From an uncultured bacterium (GTDB lineage: Bacteria; Desulfobacterota_D; UBA1144; Nemesobacterales; UBA2774), in contig CAWGRW010000009.1 in the NCBI GenBank assembly GCA_963825135.1, forward strand, positions 1,792,001 to 1,856,000: a DNA stretch of 64,000 bases, read 5' to 3'. The translations under genes were made by a program, and so were the position numbers. Every line of letters begins with the position of its first letter. Position 1 is the first letter of the stretch. Positions 17,546 to 28,654 of the stretch are shown here, in pieces. Under the pieces are notes generated by a model. The model made no database searches. It had not been told where the DNA came from and saw only the letters and a list, made by a program, of their open reading frames with translations.

Positions 17546-19042
17546 ATGAAAATACAGCCACTGGATGGGCCGGTTTCCGGTTTCATAAGAAATAATCCTC
17601 TTTTATTTGTGATATTTCTTCTGGGTTTGTTTCTCAGGCTTTATAATCTCGGCGCTGAAAGCGTATGGTTCGATGAAGCGGTTTCTATCGCGGCGGCGAA
17701 GCTCGGGTTTCTCGATCAGATAAGATGGAGCTTAGCCGAGAGTGATAAGAATCCCCCTTTTTACTATGCCTTTCTCCGCGTATGGGTTCTCATGTTCGGC
17801 GACTCCGAATTCTCCGTCAGGCTCCCCTCGGCTATTTTCGGTTCGTGCAGCATACTGTTTATTTACAAAGTCGTCAGGCTGCTCTACACCAGAAAGGCGG
17901 CCTTGCTCGCGGCGCTCGTCCTTGCCGTTTCCGTATTTCACATCCGGTTCTCTCAGGAAGGAAGGGCGTATAGTCTATCGGCACTTCTCACTCTCCTTTC
18001 CTTTTATTTCTTTTTAAAGAGCGCCTCAGAGAGAAAGCGGATCAATTCAATAGGATATGTCATATCGAGCGCGCTCTTGATTTACACCCACTATTACGGC
18101 CTTTTCATTATCCTTTCTCAAAACATCTTCTGCGCGTGGCAATATTTAGCGCGCCGGGAATCCGTAGTGCCCGACTTTAAAAAATGGATGGCTCTTCAGT
18201 TTATTCTTGGGATTTTGTATATCCCGGGACTATATATCTTGTATCGGCATTCGATCGGAATTCAAAAAGGGTTCTGGCTCTCCCCTCCCACTTTAAAGGT
18301 CTTATACGACTGCTTCGTGTTGTATTCGGGATCGACGTATCTGCTGATATTGCTCGCCGCGCTCTCAATATTGGCCTTTGTCAATATCAGGGGGGCGAGC
18401 ATCTCCGGGTATTTTAGAGGGGTCTCCGAAGCCTCGGCTCACAAACCGGAGGAAAGCGGCGCATCATATGGAAGAAGCGTGATTCTCCTCCTTCTATGGT
18501 TGATAGTTCCACTGGCCGTGCCTTTCCTGATATCGCTTGTTTCGACTCCGATTTTTTTCTACAGATACACGATCGTCGGGTCTCTCGCATTCTATATCCT
18601 CGCTTCAGTCGGGACGGTAAGGACGGGCGGCAAGAGGTTCCTTCTTCTCGCTGCGGGATTAGTTCTAATTTTTTCTTCCGTTAATATTTTCGGATATTAT
18701 GAACTGGTGGATAAGCCCGACTGGAGGTCCGGCATAGGCTATATCGAATCCAGGGCCGGCGCAGGAGATGTTATAGTTTCATACCCATGGTACGAAACGG
18801 AAGCGGCCGGTTACTATGCGGCACGAGGCGATTTGGCGATAATACCGCTCACGGACGAATTTTACTCCCCCGCCGATACGGGGGACAATGAATTCTGGCT
18901 CGTATTGTGCGACCGCTGGAAGGACGACGTAGGAAACAATAAGGGGATTATCGAAAAGAGAATCGGGGAGAGCTACGACGTTCTGGAGATGAAAGAATTC
19001 CCGTACCTCTACATCTATCGTCTCAGGTATAAAAAAGAATGA
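17546..19042 (+). CDS. GT-C superfamily membrane glycosyltransferase, paralog 2
   Basis: ESVWFDE, NPPFYY, GDSEFSVR, FSQEGRAYSL, THYYG, KPDWR. Confidence 0.85.
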   Translation: MKIQPLDGPVSGFIRNNPLLFVIFLLGLFLRLYNLGAESVWFDEAVSIAAAKLGFLDQIRWSLAESDKNPPFYYAFLRVWVLMFGDSEFSVRLPSAIFGSCSILFIYKVVRLLYTRKAALLAALVLAVSVFHIRFSQEGRAYSLSALLTLLSFYFFLKSASERKRINSIGYVISSALLIYTHYYGLFIILSQNIFCAWQYLARRESVVPDFKKWMALQFILGILYIPGLYILYRHSIGIQKGFWLSPPTLKVLYDCFVLYSGSTYLLILLAALSILAFVNIRGASISGYFRGVSEASAHKPEESGASYGRSVILLLLWLIVPLAVPFLISLVSTPIFFYRYTIVGSLAFYILASVGTVRTGGKRFLLLAAGLVLIFSSVNIFGYYELVDKPDWRSGIGYIESRAGAGDVIVSYPWYETEAAGYYAARGDLAIIPLTDEFYSPADTGDNEFWLVLCDRWKDDVGNNKGIIEKRIGESYDVLEMKEFPYLYIYRLRYKKE

Positions 19043-19089
19043 ATAGACGGGCGTGAAAATACATTTTATTTCCAGAGGGTGATCGGTTT

Positions 19090-19986
19090 ATGGCAAACGA
19101 AATTAAGTTCAGGTCGGGTTTCATAACGGTAGTCGGACGGCCCAACGTGGGTAAGTCGACACTGATTAACGCGGTTACGGGCATGAAAATAGCGGCCGTA
19201 TCTGATAAGCCCAATACGACGAGGAATAGAATACTCGGAATCAAGACGCTCCCGGACGCGCAACTCGTATTTATCGATACCCCGGGAATACATAAAGCCA
19301 GGGGAAAACTGGGCAAGGCAATGGTTCATACCGCAATGGCTGCGATCGAAGAAGCGGACGTGATTTTGATGATGATCGAAGTCAAGGAACCTTTCGGGAG
19401 AGGGGATCGCTTCATCATCGAGAATCTCCCGAAACCCTCCATCCTGATTCTAAATAAGATCGATACCGTAAATAAAAGCGAGATACTGGGAATAATCGAC
19501 GAATCGAGGAGATTTGAAGGAAAATTCCTTGAGGTTATCCCCATTTCGGCGAGAAATTCGGACGGCATCGACGATCTCTTGGCGACGATTGTAAAATACA
19601 TGCCCGAGGGGCCTAAATATTTCCCCGAAGATATGGTAACGGACCAGCCCGAAAGGTTTCTGGCCGCGGAGTTTATCAGGGAGAAGATTTTCCAATTAAC
19701 GAAACAGGAGATACCTTACAAAACCGCTGTAGTTATCGAGGAATTTAAAGACGAGCCCGAGAAGGGACTCGTCCGGATATCGGCCGTTATATATGTCGAG
19801 AGGAACAACCATAAGGGGATCATCATTGGAAAGAAGGGAGAGATGCTGAAGGAGATAGGCAGCCTTGCGCGCGGGGACATGGAAAGAGTGCTCGGGGCGA
19901 GGGTCTTCCTCGAGCTCTGGGTGAAGGTAAGTGAAGGATGGACGGAAAGGGAGAACCTGATTAAGGATTACGGATACGGCGTCTGA
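19090..19986 (+). CDS. era: GTPase Era
   Basis: GRPNVGKST, NTTR, DTPG, NKID, KH domain IIIGKKG, VFLELWVKV. Confidence 0.97.
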   Translation: MANEIKFRSGFITVVGRPNVGKSTLINAVTGMKIAAVSDKPNTTRNRILGIKTLPDAQLVFIDTPGIHKARGKLGKAMVHTAMAAIEEADVILMMIEVKEPFGRGDRFIIENLPKPSILILNKIDTVNKSEILGIIDESRRFEGKFLEVIPISARNSDGIDDLLATIVKYMPEGPKYFPEDMVTDQPERFLAAEFIREKIFQLTKQEIPYKTAVVIEEFKDEPEKGLVRISAVIYVERNNHKGIIIGKKGEMLKEIGSLARGDMERVLGARVFLELWVKVSEGWTERENLIKDYGYGV

Positions 19987-19989
19987 TAC

Positions 19990-21462
19990 ATGAAGAAAGA
20001 ATCGGTTCTCGGAGTTCTCAAAGAAAATTATTTAATAATCCTGATTTGTATTCTTGGCGTCATACCAAGGTTTTACGCTCTCGGCAAGGAGAGTATATGG
20101 TATGACGAAGCAGTCTCGATCGTTGCCTCCAAGATGGGATTTGCGGATATCATTGCATGGATATACAAGGATGCCGCGGAGGCAAACCCGCCATTTTATT
20201 ATCTGTTGATGAGTGTATGGATACCCGTTTTCGGTGATACCGAATTCATTACGCGGGTGCCCGCGGCTGTTTTCGGCTCATTTTCTGTCTTCGCTATATA
20301 CGCTGTCGGCAAGCTCCTCTATGATAAAAAGACGGGGCTTATAGCTGCACTCATTCTTGCAGTTTCCGTCTTTCACATCAGATACGCGCAGGAAGTCAGG
20401 GGATATACCCTGATGGTTTTCCTCATACTCGTTTCGTTCTACTCTTTTCTGCAGCTTTCGATTAAAAGGAGAACGTTATATGAAATTACCTATATAGCTT
20501 CGACAGTTCTCCTGGTCTGCACGCATTATTACGGAGTCTTGATTGTCCTGTCTCAAAACATCTTCTGTTTTACTTTGATTCTGAAGAATAAGAGGATCGG
20601 GGAGCTCGGCATCGGCGGGTGGCTAAAACTCCAGTTGATATCCGGCATATTGCTTCTGCCCTGCATATTTCTTCTTGCCGTTACAATATTCAGGATACGG
20701 AAGGGATTCTGGATCGCCGAGCCGACGTCTGAATATATATGGCAATATTTCGAGATCTATTCCGGATCGATCTATCTCTTAATTCTATTTCTGGGATTTT
20801 CGTTGTATGCGGTATACGGCGCTAGAAAAGTTAAAGGCAGAAAACAAAGGAGTAAGTCCGGAACATTCAACGAAGAGCGCCCGGACGCGCCCGGGATATC
20901 GGGAAGGGAGAAAATCTATTTGCTCCTTTTGTGGCTGCTCGTGCCCGTCCTAATTCCGTTTTTGATCTCCTTTGTTTTTACACCGATACTCGTATTCCGC
21001 TATACTATCGGGGCTTCGCTCGCCTTTTATCTGCTGGTGTCCAAAGGGATCGGGAATTTGAATAACAAGTGGCTGATTCTGGCTGCGGCGGGACTCATCG
21101 TCATCTTATCTTGTGTCAAGATAGGCGCCTATTATAAAGTCGTCGGCAAGCATCAGTGGAGAGAGGTGATGAGCTATATAGAATCCAAAGCGCTGCCCGG
21201 TGACGTAATAATTGTTTCGCCCATATATGAGAGGATTACCGCCAGGTACTATAAGAAGAGGAATGATATACAACTACTTCCGCTCGAGAAGAAATTCCCT
21301 GTATTCAAGGATTTGGGGAATGGAAACATTTGGTTTGTTTTTCACGCCCATCCTGATAGCCGGGCCAATTCCAGGGCGGGGCTCGGCGGAAGGTATGACA
21401 TTACCGAGAAGCACTATTACAAGCTCGATTTGTTCCAGCTAAGGGAAAAACGAACGAATTAA
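19990..21462 (+). CDS. GT-C superfamily membrane glycosyltransferase, paralog 3
   Basis: ESIWYDE, NPPFYY, GDTEFITR, YAQEVRGYTL, THYYG, KHQWRE. Confidence 0.85.
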   Translation: MKKESVLGVLKENYLIILICILGVIPRFYALGKESIWYDEAVSIVASKMGFADIIAWIYKDAAEANPPFYYLLMSVWIPVFGDTEFITRVPAAVFGSFSVFAIYAVGKLLYDKKTGLIAALILAVSVFHIRYAQEVRGYTLMVFLILVSFYSFLQLSIKRRTLYEITYIASTVLLVCTHYYGVLIVLSQNIFCFTLILKNKRIGELGIGGWLKLQLISGILLLPCIFLLAVTIFRIRKGFWIAEPTSEYIWQYFEIYSGSIYLLILFLGFSLYAVYGARKVKGRKQRSKSGTFNEERPDAPGISGREKIYLLLLWLLVPVLIPFLISFVFTPILVFRYTIGASLAFYLLVSKGIGNLNNKWLILAAAGLIVILSCVKIGAYYKVVGKHQWREVMSYIESKALPGDVIIVSPIYERITARYYKKRNDIQLLPLEKKFPVFKDLGNGNIWFVFHAHPDSRANSRAGLGGRYDITEKHYYKLDLFQLREKRTN

Positions 21463-21498: not shown

Positions 21499-22290
21499 TT
21501 ATCTCCCCTTAAACACAGGCTTCCTCTTCTCGGCAAACGATCTCTGCCCCTCCTTGTAGTCCTCGCTTTCCTGTACGGTCAGGGTCAGATTCCTTAAAAG
21601 CTCTTCGTCGTCTCCGCTGATTACCTGATTCCTCTGCCATATGTTTACCATCTCCTTGAGCGCTTTAAGGGAGAGGGGGGCGTTCTCGGTTATTTCTCCT
21701 GTTATTTCGCTCGTGAATTTTTCGAGCTCGGAACCGGGCACCGTGAAGTTGACCAGTCCGATTCTCTCCGCCCTCTCGGAATCGATCGGCCTTCCTGTCA
21801 GGAAGAGTTCCTTAGTGTATCCCGGTCCGATGAGGTTGAGGAACCTCCGTACGCCCCTGTAAGAGTATATGACTCCGAGCTTGGCAGGAGGCATGCCGAA
21901 CATACACCCCCTGACGGCGATCCGTATGTCGCATGTGGCGGCGATCTCGAGGCCGGCCCCGAAAGCGTGGCCGTTCATCATTGCCACTACCGGATATGGG
22001 AAATTCTCTATTGCTTTGACCGCTTTAGGGAGGGGATTATCTCCTGCATGGTTCTTCACCATGTCATCTTTGCCGATCGAGCTTATGTCGTAACCTGAGG
22101 AAAAAGCCTTGTCCCCGGCCCCCCTGATGACGACGCACCGGGTTCTGTCCTCATCCTTTAATCTCTCAAGCTCCGATTTCAGGCCCAGGAGCATAGCGGG
22201 AGTAAGGAGGTTCCTTTTTTCCGGCCTGTTGAAAGCAATACTGCAGACCACGCCCCTTTCCTCTACAATAAGCTCATTTCTATCAGGCAA
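21499..22290 (-). CDS. Enoyl-CoA hydratase/isomerase (crotonase) family protein
   Basis: NRPEKRN, AFSSGYD, GHAFGAGLEIA..CDIR, GMPPAKLG, SEDYKEG..EKRKPVFKGR. TTG start with GGAGG RBS. Confidence 0.92.
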   Translation of the reverse strand: MPDRNELIVEERGVVCSIAFNRPEKRNLLTPAMLLGLKSELERLKDEDRTRCVVIRGAGDKAFSSGYDISSIGKDDMVKNHAGDNPLPKAVKAIENFPYPVVAMMNGHAFGAGLEIAATCDIRIAVRGCMFGMPPAKLGVIYSYRGVRRFLNLIGPGYTKELFLTGRPIDSERAERIGLVNFTVPGSELEKFTSEITGEITENAPLSLKALKEMVNIWQRNQVISGDDEELLRNLTLTVQESEDYKEGQRSFAEKRKPVFKGR

Positions 22291-22388
22291 GGGAGCCTCC
22301 GTGCTCGGCAGCCATGGTTAACATCTTAGTATCGACACTGGGGATGCTTTGTCAAATTGCGGGCCGGGTGTCAAGAAGGGGCTGGAGC

Positions 22389-22420
22389 AATTTGCAAATT
22401 TTGGTTACTATTAGTAACTT
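22389..22420 (+). promoter_or_regulatory. Candidate promoter with overlapping operator palindromes upstream of the zinc-ribbon gene pair
   Basis: TTGCAA(22392)-17 nt-TAACTT(22415); perfect palindromes AATTTGCAAATT (22389-22400) and GTTACTA-T-TAGTAAC (22404-22418). Confidence 0.5.
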
Positions 22421-22442
22421 ATTAGAAACAGGGAGTGATAAA

Positions 22443-22946
22443 ATGCCATTATTCGAATATGAGTGTGATAAGTGTATGGATCAATATAATAGGGATATAG
22501 ACGCACTGGTTGCCAAACTCAATAAAGCCAATGCGGCAAAGATTAAAAAGGAAAATCCAGGTTTCCTATATATTGAGGTCAAGGACGGCGACAATGACCA
22601 GTTGCTCTTCGCTCTCGGTGACAGGAGCAATAGCAGGAGCGTAAGAAGGTTTCGCTACAAGCTGGATAAGAATAAAATGCTCTACCTCGAGCTCAAAAAT
22701 TTCAGGTTTAGCTCTCTCGTGTATGAAAAAGAAGAGGAAAAGGATCTGACCTGCCCTCTCTGCGGGTCAAAGGGATCCCGCAGGGTGTTCTCGACTTTCA
22801 AGGCTATATTCGAGGATAAGAGCAAGAGAGCGCCTCGGCGCGGAGATGAGCTCAGGTGGCATCTCGAATATAAAGAGCAGAAAGACGAGGAAATGAGGAA
22901 CGACTGGGTAGGGCAGGAGCACTTGAATCAGTATTTCAACAGATAA
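22443..22946 (+). CDS. FmdB-family zinc-ribbon protein with a 74-aa inserted domain, copy 1
   Basis: MPLFEYECDKC..[74 aa]..NFRFSSLV..CPLCGS..RRVFSTF. GGGAG RBS supports ATG 22443 rather than 22314. Confidence 0.75.
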   Translation: MPLFEYECDKCMDQYNRDIDALVAKLNKANAAKIKKENPGFLYIEVKDGDNDQLLFALGDRSNSRSVRRFRYKLDKNKMLYLELKNFRFSSLVYEKEEEKDLTCPLCGSKGSRRVFSTFKAIFEDKSKRAPRRGDELRWHLEYKEQKDEEMRNDWVGQEHLNQYFNR

Positions 22947-22967
22947 TATACCGGGAGAGTGAATTAG

Positions 22968-23453
22968 ATGCCGCTTTATGAGTATGAATGCATTCCGTGC
23001 AGGAAGAACGTGGAAGACTCCTTAAAGGCTCTTAATAACGGAGTCACCAAAAAGATGGTATCGGAGCTGGTAAAGAAGCATGACAATATCAACCATATCG
23101 GGGTCCTCGATCTGGAAAAGGAAGAGGTTTTGGCCGAGCATGGAAAGCGCGACAGGGACGCTTCGGATTTGAATTTTTATCTCAATGACGGCACTACGCT
23201 GGTAATTTTCAATCTAAAAAAGAATTACCGTTTTTCCGAGCTCATATACGAGCCCGGGGACGAGAAAAAGCTCAAGTGCCTGCTTTGCGGAACGAAGAAA
23301 GTCGAGAAAGTGGTATCGAGCTTCGCCTTTACAAGCGATCTTTCAACTGATATGCCCAAACCCGACCTTGGCAACCTGCCCCCGTCCGTCAGGAACAGGA
23401 CATTCCTGGGCGAGTACATAGAAGAAAAAGACAGGCCTAAGAAAAATCGATGA
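22968..23453 (+). CDS. FmdB-family zinc-ribbon protein with a 74-aa inserted domain, copy 2
   Basis: MPLYEYECIPC..[74 aa]..NYRFSELI..CLLCGT..EKVVSSF; RBS GGGAG. Confidence 0.75.
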   Translation: MPLYEYECIPCRKNVEDSLKALNNGVTKKMVSELVKKHDNINHIGVLDLEKEEVLAEHGKRDRDASDLNFYLNDGTTLVIFNLKKNYRFSELIYEPGDEKKLKCLLCGTKKVEKVVSSFAFTSDLSTDMPKPDLGNLPPSVRNRTFLGEYIEEKDRPKKNR

Positions 23454-23648
23454 TTGCTGTTACTGGCGGATAGTTTGACGGAGCGTTGTTGGAGGTGCGC
23501 ACGGTCGTGTTCAGCCCGGTCGCATCCCGGCTCATTGCATAACCTCTTGGTATTATTTAATATATTATTTTTTATCGTTTGGTCGATTAGTATGTGCAGC
23601 TAAGTATGTAGATGAGTCTTGTGTGTGTTATACTCCGCAGGGGTAAAT

Positions 23649-23681
23649 TAATTATAGCGCGTTGAAATGCGGTTATAATTA
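23649..23681. promoter_or_regulatory. Inverted repeat upstream of the arylsulfotransferase, possible operator or hairpin
   Basis: TAATTATA(23649)-17 nt-TATAATTA(23681) with further internal pairing; the right arm contains TATAAT. Confidence 0.3.
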
Positions 23682-23738
23682 TCGAAGGAATAAATTCGTA
23701 GTGACAAAACATAAAATATTCGAGGATCGGAGGCTCCT

Positions 23739-25469
23739 ATGAATGTTCTGAAACGACAAATTGTCTGGGATGCTTTATCCCGTAAATACCGCAGTCTGTT
23801 TTATTCATTTTTGCTTTTGTCCTGTTTCGTCGTATCGGGATGCGATGACAATGGCAACGTCCTCTCCACCGACCCTGACGACAACGATCCGCCCGGGGTC
23901 GTAACGGGACCGACGGTGGCACTTTCTCAGAACGCTCCTTTGGCGGCGCTCCTCAGATTGACAACAGACGAGCCGGCCGAAGTTACGGTCGACGTCACGA
24001 GCAACTCCGCTGAGGCCAGCTCTGTAACCGACACGTCTCGCGACTTTTCTGTTCATAGCGACGGTTTCACGACCGAGCACGCGATAACGCTGCTGGGGTT
24101 TCATCCCGCGGCATCCTATGACATTCGCGTCACATTGACGGACGAAGAGGGTAACGACACCGTCCTGGACGACGCCCTCGGTGTTACTACGGCGCCGTTG
24201 CCCGTCGGCTTTCCTCCTATTCACGTGGAGAGCACGCCTGAGCTCATGGAGCCGGGGGTCACTCTTTTCCCCGTAAGAGCCTCAGGCGCTAACCTCGCCT
24301 TCGGCAGTGTATTCGTGGCTGTGGACGAGTCGGGAGAAGTTGTGTGGTACAGGAGATTCGACAACATAGGGTACGGCGACATAAGACGCATATCGAACGG
24401 GGACCTGCTGTTCATACGCGACGACGCCACAATTACGGAGATCAACATGCTCGGGGATATAGTGAGGGAGTGGCACACTACCAAGAAGCAAGATCCCGCG
24501 CCCGGCAGCATTCCCGTCAACATTCCCGTTTTTCACCACGAAGTCTTCGAGATGGATAACGGTGATTTCCTCGTTTTGAGCATTGATCTGCGGGAATTTG
24601 AAAATTATCCGACGAGCGATTCTGACCCCGCGGCACCCTTGGGGACGGCCGTCCTGGCCGGCGATATGGTCGTCGAATTCTCCCCCGCGGACGGAGCGGT
24701 CGTGAACGAGTGGCGGCTTCTCGACCTGCTCGACCCTTACAGGATAGGCTATGATTCTCTCGGCGGCTTCTGGAACACCGTATTCTCCGAAATTGAAGGA
24801 GGTGTCAAGGATTGGGGTCACGCGAACGCCGTGATACAGGACCCATCGGATGACTCTATTATTGTTTCGCTTCGCCACCAGGATGCTGTCGTAAAGTTCA
24901 GCAGACAGACCGGTCAGCTTATCTGGATATTGGGGACACACAATAACTGGGACCCGGTTCGGTTCGGGAGTTTTTTGCTCGACCCTGTCGGAGATCCGTT
25001 CCTCTTTCAATACCATCAGCACGCCCCGGAAGTTACAGAGGCAGGAACTATATTACTCTATGACAACGGTAACTATAAAGCAACCCCGTTCGATGTGAAA
25101 TTGCCGGCGACCGAGAACTTCAGCCGCGCCGCCGAATTTTCCATAAACGAAGATACCAAACAAGTTACCCAGGTATGGGAGTTCGGCGAGTTTGACGATC
25201 CCGTGCGTTACGCCCCGTTCATCGGAGATGCCGATATGCAGCCTCTTACCGGGAACGTGCTCATAACACACGGCGGGGTTACAACGGACGCAGAAGGTTT
25301 ACCCACGGATAATATTTTTGCGGCAAAGACCTCGGTTTATTTAATTGAAGTCACGCATACGACGCCGGGTGAAAAGGTGTTCGAGCTTTCGATAGTCGAT
25401 CCGACGCCTGAAACGGCAAACGGGTGGACTACTTACCGGGCCGAAAGATTGCCGAGCCTTTACCCCTAA
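23739..25469 (+). CDS. Arylsulfotransferase (ASST family) lipoprotein
   Basis: Signal peptide with lipobox VSGC, N-terminal NAPLAA Ig-like domain, ASST motifs FHHE, DWGHANA, SLRHQ, QHAPE, YDNG, YRAER. Confidence 0.88.
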   Translation: MNVLKRQIVWDALSRKYRSLFYSFLLLSCFVVSGCDDNGNVLSTDPDDNDPPGVVTGPTVALSQNAPLAALLRLTTDEPAEVTVDVTSNSAEASSVTDTSRDFSVHSDGFTTEHAITLLGFHPAASYDIRVTLTDEEGNDTVLDDALGVTTAPLPVGFPPIHVESTPELMEPGVTLFPVRASGANLAFGSVFVAVDESGEVVWYRRFDNIGYGDIRRISNGDLLFIRDDATITEINMLGDIVREWHTTKKQDPAPGSIPVNIPVFHHEVFEMDNGDFLVLSIDLREFENYPTSDSDPAAPLGTAVLAGDMVVEFSPADGAVVNEWRLLDLLDPYRIGYDSLGGFWNTVFSEIEGGVKDWGHANAVIQDPSDDSIIVSLRHQDAVVKFSRQTGQLIWILGTHNNWDPVRFGSFLLDPVGDPFLFQYHQHAPEVTEAGTILLYDNGNYKATPFDVKLPATENFSRAAEFSINEDTKQVTQVWEFGEFDDPVRYAPFIGDADMQPLTGNVLITHGGVTTDAEGLPTDNIFAAKTSVYLIEVTHTTPGEKVFELSIVDPTPETANGWTTYRAERLPSLYP

Positions 25470-26693: not shown

Positions 26694-28654
26694 ATGATCA
26701 GGATAGGAATCGATACCGGCGGAACATTTACGGATTTCGTATTCTTCGACGGTAAAGAAATTCATACATACAAGGTTCCCTCTACCCCCGAAGATCCTTC
26801 GGTTGCAATAGTCTCAGGGTTGGTCCACAAGCTCGGCGCTGACCTCGATGGCGTCGAGATCGTTCACGGGACCACGGTCGCCACGAACACCCTCCTCGAG
26901 CGTAAAGGAGCCCGCATAGCCTTGATAACGACCGCGGGGTTTGAGGACGTCATAGAGATAGGCAGGCAGAACAGGGGGGAACTCTATAATCTGTTTTGGG
27001 ATTCGCCCGGGCCTCTCGTGGAGAGGGGACTCAGGTTGGGGGTGACCGAGCGCACCTTGTTCACAGGCGAAATACTGAAAAAGATCAAGAGGGCTGATCT
27101 CGAACGATTACTGGCGAAGCTTAGGAGAATTAAACCCGAGGGTATCGCCGTCTCATTTCTTCATTCCTATAAGAACCCGGAGAACGAAAATAAGGCGGCG
27201 AATTACCTGAGCGTTCTCGGAATCCCGATCTCCGTATCGTCCGTAATCCTCCCCGAGTTCAGGGAATACGAAAGAACCTCCACCGTAGTCGCGAACGCGT
27301 ATCTGCTTCCAAAAGTAAAATCCTATATGAGGGCACTATCGAAAGGCATCTCGACCAGGGGGGCGCCGAGGACTGTATATACGTTATGCAATCAAGCGGA
27401 GGAATCATTTCCCCTGAGCAGGCCGGGGAGGAGCCGGTAAGGGTTCTTCTGTCCGGGCCGGCCGGTGGCGTGGTGGGAGCTTTCAATATATCCCGGCTGA
27501 TGGGTTACAGGAAGGTCATTACGTACGACATGGGCGGTACATCGACGGATGTCGCGTTATGTGAGGGAGGCCCGAAATTCAGCACCGAAACGAGCATAGA
27601 CGGGATCCCGGTGAGAATGCCCATGATAGATGTGATGACCATCGGTGCGGGCGGAGGGTCCATAGCCCATATCGATACGGGCGGCGCGTTGAAGGTGGGT
27701 CCCCGCAGCTCAGGCGCCGACCCCGGACCAGCGTGTTACGGCAAGGGCGTAGAGCCCGCCGTAACCGATGCAAACCTTGTTCTTGGCAGAATTGATCCCG
27801 CCCGCTTTCTTGGCGGAAGGATGAAGCTCCGTTCCGAAAGGTCGGGGGCCGCACTCGGGGGCCTCGCTAAGAAGATGCAGCTCTCCGTCCCGGATCTCGC
27901 GGAAGGGATAATCAGCGTCGCGAACGCCAATATGGAACGTGCTCTCCGCGTTATTTCCATGGGTAAGGGATACGACCCGAGGGATTTTGCACTTGTCTCT
28001 TTCGGAGGCGCGGGCGGGCTCCACGCATGCGAGCTTGCACGCGGAATGGAGATGAAAACAGTTATTTTCCCGAGAGACCCCGGTGTCCTTTCGGCCCTGG
28101 GGATGCTAATGGCGGATACGTTTAAGGATTACGGACTGACGGTATTCCTGAGCGGGAAAGAAATGAAGACTCCCGGGATTGAGGAGGGGTTCAGGCTGTT
28201 GGAGGAGAGGTCCAATGCCGATTTTCGCGGCTCAGAAATTAAATTCGAGAGATTCCTGGACGCGCGTTACAGGAGACAGGCGCATGAGATCACTATTCCC
28301 TACAAAAAGGAATTCATAAAAGAATTCCACCGCACTCATAAAAAAATGTACGGATACATGAAGCCTGAGGGAGAGGTGGAAGTCGTAACCTTGAGATTAA
28401 GGACCATAGCGAAAAGAAGAAATCTCAAACTCCCCCTGCTGGAAAAAAAGAAATCTTCTGTTCGGTCAGCCAGGCAAAATGTAATATTGCGGGGAAAGGA
28501 GGTAGGCGTAAACGCCTTCGAGAGAGAAAGCTTCAATCCGGGTTTCAAATTCTCGGGGCCCGCGCTCGTGTTCGAGGACACCTCCACGCTCTTTATTACG
28601 CCCGGATACAGGTGCGAAGTGGACGGCTGGGGGAACATAGTTGCACGATACTGA
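26694..28654 (+). pseudogene. Hydantoinase A / 5-oxoprolinase A family protein split by a one-base frameshift (true pseudogene or assembly indel)
   Basis: ORF1 has DTGGTFTD, HGTTVATN and EFREYERTST. ORF2 has MQSSGG, SGPAGG, DMGGTSTD, GAGGGS and FGGAGGLH. One extra G in the G6 run at 27358-27363 joins the frames. Confidence 0.85.

Follow-up and report, generated by a model that had tools for sequence, protein, structure and literature searches.

What is the function of two neighbouring genes of an uncultured bacterium whose small products seem to carry, at the same position, a folded domain inside a zinc knuckle? Ribbon proteins of the FmdB/Ruc type are among the commonest small proteins of bacteria, and yet almost nothing of their biology is known. 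The genes considered here, A and B, lie in a stretch of 64,000 nucleotides (nt; hereafter the window: contig CAWGRW010000009.1 of assembly GCA_963825135.1, positions 1,792,001–1,856,000, forward strand); the coordinates of their parts are collected in Table 1. The comparisons described below show that A and B, as predicted from their sequences, form a core, phylum-restricted tandem pair of four-cysteine ribbon proteins of the FmdB/Ruc type. They also show that ribbon and C-terminal tail make up the apparent core of each protein, with the nested insert as an accessory that is dispensable in some lineages. As to function, we can offer only a best guess, weakly held, that A and B work as a Ruc-like pair of adaptors or holdases switched by zinc or redox state.

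A tandem pair of interrupted FmdB-type ribbons

Both proteins start with MPL(F/Y)EYEC..C, and in both of them residues 12–85, 74 in all, separate the first CxxC from an N(F/Y)RFS strand. An earlier note on this DNA had given the positions of the two open reading frames (ORFs), the 21-nt gap between them, a ribosome-binding site for each gene and the 74 residues that follow the first CxxC, all of which were confirmed to the base; the ribosome-binding sites are of the GGGAG type (22431–22435 for A, 22953–22959 for B). Its description of the architecture, a tandem pair of diverged FmdB ribbons that each enclose a further domain, has also held up. Pfam Zn_ribbon_8 (PF09723) and TIGR02605 each match A and B in two pieces, the N-terminal knuckle and about residues 89–119. 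Protein A remains below both cut-offs (30.1 bits against 34.4 for the Pfam model and 29.4 against 31.3 for TIGR02605), and B passes TIGR02605 only (32.5 against 31.3, with 25.9 against 34.4 for Pfam). The knuckle MPxYEYxCxxC, which covers profile positions 1–14/16, is read from the initiator Met in A and B and is invariant in 28 + 28 aligned relatives. The four cysteines are likewise invariant across the alignments, and the AlphaFold2 (AF2) models of both proteins place strands at residues 3–8, 88–92 and 112–115. Ordinary FmdB ribbons of 60–90 residues match the joint A and B profile in two stretches, with the insert skipped.

With the FmdB family (PF09723; TIGR02605, CxxC_CxxC_SSSS), A and B thus share the MPxYEYxCxxC knuckle, an F-x-E-L strand, a C-P-x-C-G knuckle, a V-x-R-x-x-S strand and a hydrophilic tail. 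They differ from the family in the 74 nested residues, which leave 92 residues between Cys11 and Cys104 instead of the roughly 18 of a compact ribbon, in tails that are conserved and paralogue-specific, and in being a fixed tandem pair. The source genome also encodes four ordinary Zn_ribbon_8 genes that score above the Pfam cut-off. Kinship with DUF1178 was considered and rejected: A gives E 0.12 and an insert-less relative of A (locus L032, described below) 1e-4, and the weak matches in whole genomes fall on another FmdB paralogue.

Word-indexed searches returned 167 relatives of A and 210 of B, nearly all of 160–168 residues and either unnamed or named after the ribbon (B is 'RPC12/RpoP' in some source records); where a taxon is stated, it is Candidatus Dadabacteria or Thermodesulfobacteriota. 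A profile built from 55 sequences of A and B found only 64 matches at E ≤ 0.001 among 1.84 billion representative proteins. The clusters without clear truncation are P0015, P0242, P0243 and perhaps P0244 (157 residues, with a different tail), and the other strong matches are fragments. Among these representatives there was no full-length relative from outside the phylum, and the 64 matches, on which no length limit was set, included no fused or longer form apart from an unrelated 726-residue repeat protein (E 6.6e-4).

Inside the phylum the picture is the reverse. Matches to the pair were found in 115 of 120 genomes, including 92 of the 94 of high quality, and in 31 of 32 genera, nearly always adjacent and with A before B; genomes of family f9, of about 0.8–1.1 megabases (Mb), carry the pair as well. 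With an insert-only profile, two matches were obtained in 104 of the 120. An empty whole-genome search is by itself no proof of absence, and in the five genomes without the pair the locus is probably unassembled, because the neighbouring HisIE was not found there either. Conservation of the pair was also seen in a survey of 13 loci from seven families, with neighbours identified by Pfam: A and B are adjacent in all 13. The f9 proteins, both A and B, bear C-terminal extensions of 12–20 residues.

The architecture had been thought to belong to no described family, and nothing in Pfam, NCBIfam, the PDB, the representative proteins or the literature searched contradicts this. When the PDB sequences were searched with the profiles of both families, no match was better than E = 1. 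In the ESM Atlas, a search with the whole of B retrieved no clusters except its own and those of ordinary Zn_ribbon_8 proteins, and the B tail retrieved no usable match; in PADLOC and PHROGs the best E was 0.006, for a 19-residue stretch. A literature search found no account of an insert nested in a ribbon, and none that links Dadabacteria with a zinc ribbon or FmdB.

A and B are paralogues: BLASTP aligns 133 residues at 35% identity (E 9e-20). The inserts, which had been said to align without gaps, are indeed colinear and of the same length, but their best alignments contain two compensating one-residue gaps; hhalign aligns insert-only profiles of A and B in register, with a probability of 82% and E 1e-5. 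The C-terminal tails, on the other hand, were rightly described as unrelated, as their profiles do not match each other (hhalign, E 0.12). In the same genome, each tail and each insert is present only once. Third codon positions are 0.36–0.54 identical, which is near saturation, against 0.61–0.89 for first and second positions, and this holds in the tails too. Because the first two positions are kept while the third is nearly saturated, every segment of both genes, tails included, is under purifying selection. Judged from this codon-position pattern and from the conservation of both genes across the phylum, the A/B signal is well beyond chance.

The pair also reveals an annotation error. In the source genome, A has been called as a protein of 156 residues (P0003) that starts at Met12 and thus lacks the first CxxC knuckle. 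Of the 120 A-family clusters listed, eight, the source genome's own call among them, are 155–156 residues long, start at Met12 and have no PF09723 label; one further cluster, of 200 residues, starts farther upstream. The Met12 starts cost these A-family members both their first zinc knuckle and their Pfam label.

Natural orthologues without the insert

That A and B would be recognized as FmdB ribbons once the insert was absent can be read from natural orthologues that lack it. These plain proteins match PF09723 (50–51 bits) and TIGR02605 (50–57 bits) in one contiguous stretch and above both cut-offs. In the insert-less orthologues of loci L032, L033 and L119–L124 18 residues separate the two cysteine pairs, and plain and window proteins thus differ by exactly 74 residues. 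P0254, an 87-residue match among the representatives (E 3.5e-19), combines a plain FmdB ribbon with a B-type tail; this plain-B cluster is 77% identical to B of L032, and in its NCBI source record it carries the name of a Caldarchaeum bin, a label that probably stems from binning.

The plain genes occupy the place of A and B. In L033 (Bacterium HR37, G009) the order is Era, crotonase (minus strand), insert-bearing A, plain 87-residue B, HisIE (minus strand) and RpoZ, and in G002–G004 and G013–G015 an A with insert (167–170 residues) is followed by a plain B of 87 residues; plain B is thus found in 7 of the 15 genomes of family f2. In one genome, G016 (L032), both genes are plain (A of 85 and B of 87 residues) and sit in the same gene slot. 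A homologue search with this plain A returned only itself. The L032 locus has a G+C content of 61%, compared with 30–52% in the other loci checked.

These genomes do not agree with the idea, put forward in the earlier note, of two inserts that work as an obligate pair: eight genomes have lost the B insert or both inserts, and in the seven with plain B the A insert is fully conserved and its scores are no weaker than elsewhere (best E 1e-21 to 2e-30), so that it does not depend on the B insert. On a tree of concatenated Era, crotonase and HisIE (25 genomes, 779 columns; L026/G012 was dropped because it had too few filled columns), five plain-B genomes and three genomes with an insert-bearing B form one clade (99/98) that is sister to family f1 (95/96). 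Because the plain-B lineages nest among insert-bearing ones, the B insert was lost secondarily, in one to three events. G016 branches within the ingroup (83/92), and the polarity of its plain/plain state depends on the root, which was family f9, placed in another order by kinship labels; on this tree the composition of f9 and G016 is deviant, and the branch that leads to family f6 is long. A tree of the A proteins (33 rows, L025 and L031 omitted as duplicates of L018 and L006) leaves family f2 unresolved and was therefore set aside as a guide to polarity. The A and B inserts are 14–21% identical to each other and the A inserts 41–62% identical among themselves, f9 included; an insert older than the radiation would fit. 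Its loss is possibly tied to habitat.

Since the insert-less orthologues retain both ribbon and tail, these two parts probably carry the indispensable function. In the alignments, conservation in both A and B is highest in the paralogue-specific tail and not in the insert: the majority fraction of A is 0.81 in the tail against 0.69 in the insert, and that of B 0.89 against 0.68. The B tail contains the motifs D-L-S-T-D-M-P-K-P-D-L-S and Y-I-E-E-K-D-R-P-K, and in the A tail AF2 places helices with low confidence. Both tails are hydrophilic and 41–47 residues long; in length, and for B in the low confidence of the model, they resemble the tail of the mycobacterial protein Ruc, but they are highly conserved.

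Genes A and B are core genes of a whole uncultured phylum with a predicted folded domain nested in a zinc knuckle. With invariant tails that look like docking peptides and with natural insert-less versions, they offer a clean comparative system for the separate roles of ribbon, tail and insert.

Fold of the insert and the readings it suggests

The insert had been expected to be structured and to be PDC/Cache/PAS-like. Both AF2 models indeed contain two helices and a four-stranded sheet, and the likeness holds at the level of fold only. The mean predicted local distance difference test (pLDDT) score is 71.9 for A and 79.0 for B, higher in the cores (Table 1). The order of elements is the same in both proteins: a strand (3–8), two helices (9–24 and 28–37), four strands within 41–85, the ribbon strand 88–92, a short helix, the strand 112–115 and then the poorly modelled tail. 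VIA-align, run against 48,161 PDB representatives, gave for B the best matches CqsR (9nia; Z 9.2, root-mean-square deviation (rmsd) 2.4 over 71 residues), the TlpC dCache domain (5wbf; Z 8.4) and 4onx (Z 8.2), and for A the best match TlpC (Z 7.4, rmsd 2.3 over 77 residues), followed by Z 7.1 and 7.0; these values are at, or barely over, the range that the tool calls common for unrelated models. The lists for both models consist mostly of PDC/Cache/PAS-like sensor domains, and below these come the C-terminal domain of ribosomal protein uS3 and Roadblock proteins at Z 5–6. Foldseek found no match at E ≤ 0.001 for either model (best E 0.016–0.05), and no Cache, PAS or other sensor family of Pfam matched A or B at E ≤ 1.

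In Cache/PDC domains, helices between strands 2 and 3 close the ligand pocket. The modelled insert resembles those of CqsR (9nia), TlpC (5wbf) and KinD (4jgo) in having N-terminal helices on an antiparallel sheet of identical strand order (Z 9.2–7.1 for B and 7.4–6.5 for A; rmsd 2.3–3.9 over 66–87 residues). Unlike them, it is about half the size, and its strands 2 and 3, assigned by DSSP in both models to residues 53/54–59 and 66/67–72/74, are joined by a loop of 6–7 residues; without the intervening helices an enclosed pocket is not expected. A and B also differ from PDC/Cache proteins in being, as predicted, cytoplasmic, with neither transmembrane anchor nor transmitter domain and with no Cache/PAS Pfam match, and in drawing the fifth strand of the sheet from the zinc ribbon itself. 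The resemblance of the models to PDC/Cache domains is thus a weak one, of fold and nothing beyond.

This bears on the proposal of a heterodimeric cytoplasmic sensor made up of A and B, in which the inserts would bind a small ligand, possibly related to acyl-CoA, and signal through ribbon or tail. Both inserts are closer to PDC/Cache domains than to anything else in the PDB, the diverged pair of inserts recurs in tandem in the 104 genomes mentioned above, and 10 of the 13 loci have a crotonase gene next to the pair in divergent orientation. The short loop in place of the pocket-forming lid helices, however, speaks against a ligand sensor, and so do Z values at or just above those of unrelated models, the empty Foldseek result and the lack of an output domain or of a Pfam sensor family. 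Seven genomes, moreover, have lost the B insert while the A insert stayed conserved, and one has lost both; the pair is retained in genomes of about 1 Mb, which usually shed regulators; and the crotonase gene stands apart from A–B in three of the 13 loci. Taking these together, we regard a sensor as decidedly unlikely.

The charge of the inserts suggests a different role. The A insert is basic (family mean net charge +7.1, isoelectric point 9.8) and the B insert neutral, and A and B may be small factors that bind nucleic acid or associate with a machine such as the ribosome or RNA polymerase; RNA or DNA would be touched by the ribbon and the A insert, the machine by the tails. Besides the strongly basic A insert, this is favoured by the retention of both genes as core genes in streamlined genomes, by the uS3 C-terminal domain that recurs among the structural matches (Z about 6), by Era and rpoZ in the conserved neighbourhood and by the name RPC12/RpoP that some sources give to B. 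Yet the B insert is neutral, the uS3 and Roadblock matches are weaker than those to Cache domains and within the generic range, and the source names are based on the ribbon alone. The mixed neighbourhood (HisIE, crotonase, hydantoinase) says little, and there is no sequence relative with a solved structure. We consider this role unlikely.

The Ruc analogy and the genomic neighbourhood

To our knowledge, Ruc is the only characterised protein built from a ribbon plus a hydrophilic tail, and we take it to be a member of TIGR02605. The paper that describes it (PMC7448276) mentions neither FmdB nor TIGR02605. As described there, Ruc (Mycobacterium tuberculosis Rv0991c) has a ribbon of about 50 residues with four cysteines, which binds zinc close to 1:1, and a disordered hydrophilic tail; oxidation brings about holdase activity, DnaK co-purifies with the protein, and the family is widespread in bacteria (PMC7448276). 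A and B are like Ruc in their small four-cysteine ribbon and hydrophilic C-terminal part, which is disordered in Ruc (PMC7448276) and modelled as disordered in B. By analogy with Ruc, the Cys4-zinc site of A and B would act as a zinc/redox switch and the tails as peptides that dock on client proteins or on a conserved partner in the cell. Binding or loss of zinc may be mechanically coupled to the insert, a coupling we propose because the first helix of the insert starts at the first knuckle. In that case the insert would provide a second surface for interactions, one that is specific to the lineage and is basic in A but neutral in B.

Several observations weigh against this Ruc-like pair, and we advance it only tentatively. 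The tails of Ruc proteins range from about 7 to 61 residues and are highly variable (PMC7448276), whereas those of A and B are nearly invariant. According to the same source, ruc genes often stand beside chaperone genes (PMC7448276), while A–B lies among Era, crotonase, HisIE and RpoZ, and no chaperone gene was found among the Pfam-identified neighbour clusters of the 13 loci. In a comparison of 32 loci, no CIRCE-like or other heat-shock-type operator was conserved upstream of A. The four ordinary FmdB ribbons of the source genome could, furthermore, be the true equivalents of Ruc. A and B also differ from Ruc in that its ribbon is uninterrupted, with the spacing CxxC-N17-CxxC (PMC7448276). 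A complex prediction for A and B scored 0.00, which is evidence neither way. For the wider family, one table entry lists an FmdB-family domain as putatively essential in Burkholderia cenocepacia (PMC8770471), which would be compatible, by analogy, with a housekeeping role for at least some FmdB members.

A bolder version would make the pair an essential, phylum-specific two-protein switch, in which the zinc knuckle clamps a lid-less PDC-like module, and zinc or redox state, or binding to the sheet, frees or captures tails that dock on DnaK, the ribosome or RNA polymerase. We think this quite unlikely; if true, it would mean a new wiring of a sensor-type fold into a zinc ribbon, for which the insert-less orthologues are ready-made controls.

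Table 1. Features of the A–B locus; positions are those of the window
Feature	Position	Strand	Remarks
Gene A	22443..22946	+	Split FmdB-type zinc-ribbon protein, 167 residues; Cys 8, 11, 104, 107
A insert, residues 12–85	22476..22697	+	Two helices and four-stranded sheet; AF2 pLDDT about 80–85; basic
A second ribbon half, residues 86–120	22698..22802	+	NFRFS strand, CPLC knuckle, RRVFS strand; TIGR02605 positions 15–46
A tail, residues 121–167	22803..22943	+	Acidic, highly conserved; ends W-V-G-x-x-H-L-N-Q-Y-F
A–B spacer, 21 nt	22947..22967	+	Holds the gene B ribosome-binding site GGGAGAG (22953–22959)
Gene B	22968..23453	+	Split FmdB-type zinc-ribbon protein, 161 residues; Cys 8, 11, 104, 107
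B insert, residues 12–85	23001..23222	+	Topology as in A; AF2 pLDDT about 90–93; near-neutral
B second ribbon half, residues 86–120	23223..23327	+	From alignment; TIGR02605 match in two stretches
B tail, residues 121–161	23328..23450	+	Most conserved segment; predicted disordered, pLDDT 41–66
Crotonase-family gene (ECH_1)	21499..22290	-	From Pfam; conserved divergent neighbour
Intergenic region	22291..22442	.	Back-to-back promoter-like elements; consensus scan and upstream comparison of 32 loci

The phylum-wide gene order is Era, crotonase, A, B, HisIE, RpoZ. In the 13 loci of the survey, the crotonase gene lies directly upstream of A and divergent from it in 10, as it does in L032 and L033; HisIE follows just downstream in 12, and Era stands farther upstream in 10. 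This conserved order joins unrelated functions and gives no evidence for a pathway. The link to acyl-CoA metabolism that the earlier note saw in the crotonase gene is accordingly not supported, this being one gene of a phylum-wide order that is separated from A–B in three of the 13 loci. A closer tie, in which A and B would be accessory or regulatory subunits of the crotonase-family enzyme, might be read from the back-to-back promoter-like elements of the divergent genes in the 10 loci and in L032 and L033, and from the adjacency of the crotonase gene in all four f9 loci (genomes of about 1 Mb) that were examined. In L026, L027 and L028, however, this adjacency is broken while A and B stay together; the Era-to-RpoZ block is conserved as a unit, so that linkage to the crotonase gene is inseparable from general synteny; and the enzyme itself scores below every NCBIfam cut-off and so reaches no specific family. 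A parallel idea, with the hydantoinase as partner, was rejected, as its gene was not found in four of the five pair-bearing f9 genomes (92–94% complete). That A and B are crotonase subunits is, in our estimate, very improbable.

A and B have a promoter-like region of their own and are probably co-transcribed, since only 21 nt separate them and this interval holds no terminator-like site. In the intergenic region, a TTGACA at 22350–22355 on the minus strand lies ahead of the crotonase gene, and a conserved -10-like element at about 22402–22413 lies ahead of A, both being common to the upstream regions compared; consensus counts for promoters and terminators are no higher than in shuffled sequence. 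The upstream elements TTTGTCAAAT and tTTGTTAnTATT recur in families f1–f3 among the 32 loci compared. A perfect 7-1-7 palindrome, GTTACTATTAGTAAC, at 22404–22418 overlaps the -10-like element of gene A; it is unlikely to be a conserved operator, for only one of the 31 other loci (L015) has a counterpart. Rfam gave no match at E ≤ 0.1 between 18000 and 28000.

Some features of the neighbourhood are peculiar to single lineages. Between B and HisIE, at 23454–25469, the source genome alone among the 13 loci has an arylsulfotransferase (ASST) gene of 576 residues with an AT-rich leader region of 285 nt, which looks like a lineage-specific insertion. Loci L020–L023 of family f9 (genomes of about 1 Mb) have in this interval a small conserved ORF of 75–98 residues on the minus strand, which the other families lack. 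At 17546–21462, two paralogous genes for PMT_2 (GT39-like) membrane glycosyltransferases flank Era, and among the loci compared the same place is so occupied only in L031, by one such gene. Farther downstream, the gene for hydantoinase/oxoprolinase A is split into overlapping ORFs in different frames (26694–27440, 248 residues, and 27386–28654, 422 residues). Its relatives are single ORFs of 638–670 residues, and either a frameshift or a mistake in sequencing near 27386–27440 accounts for the split.

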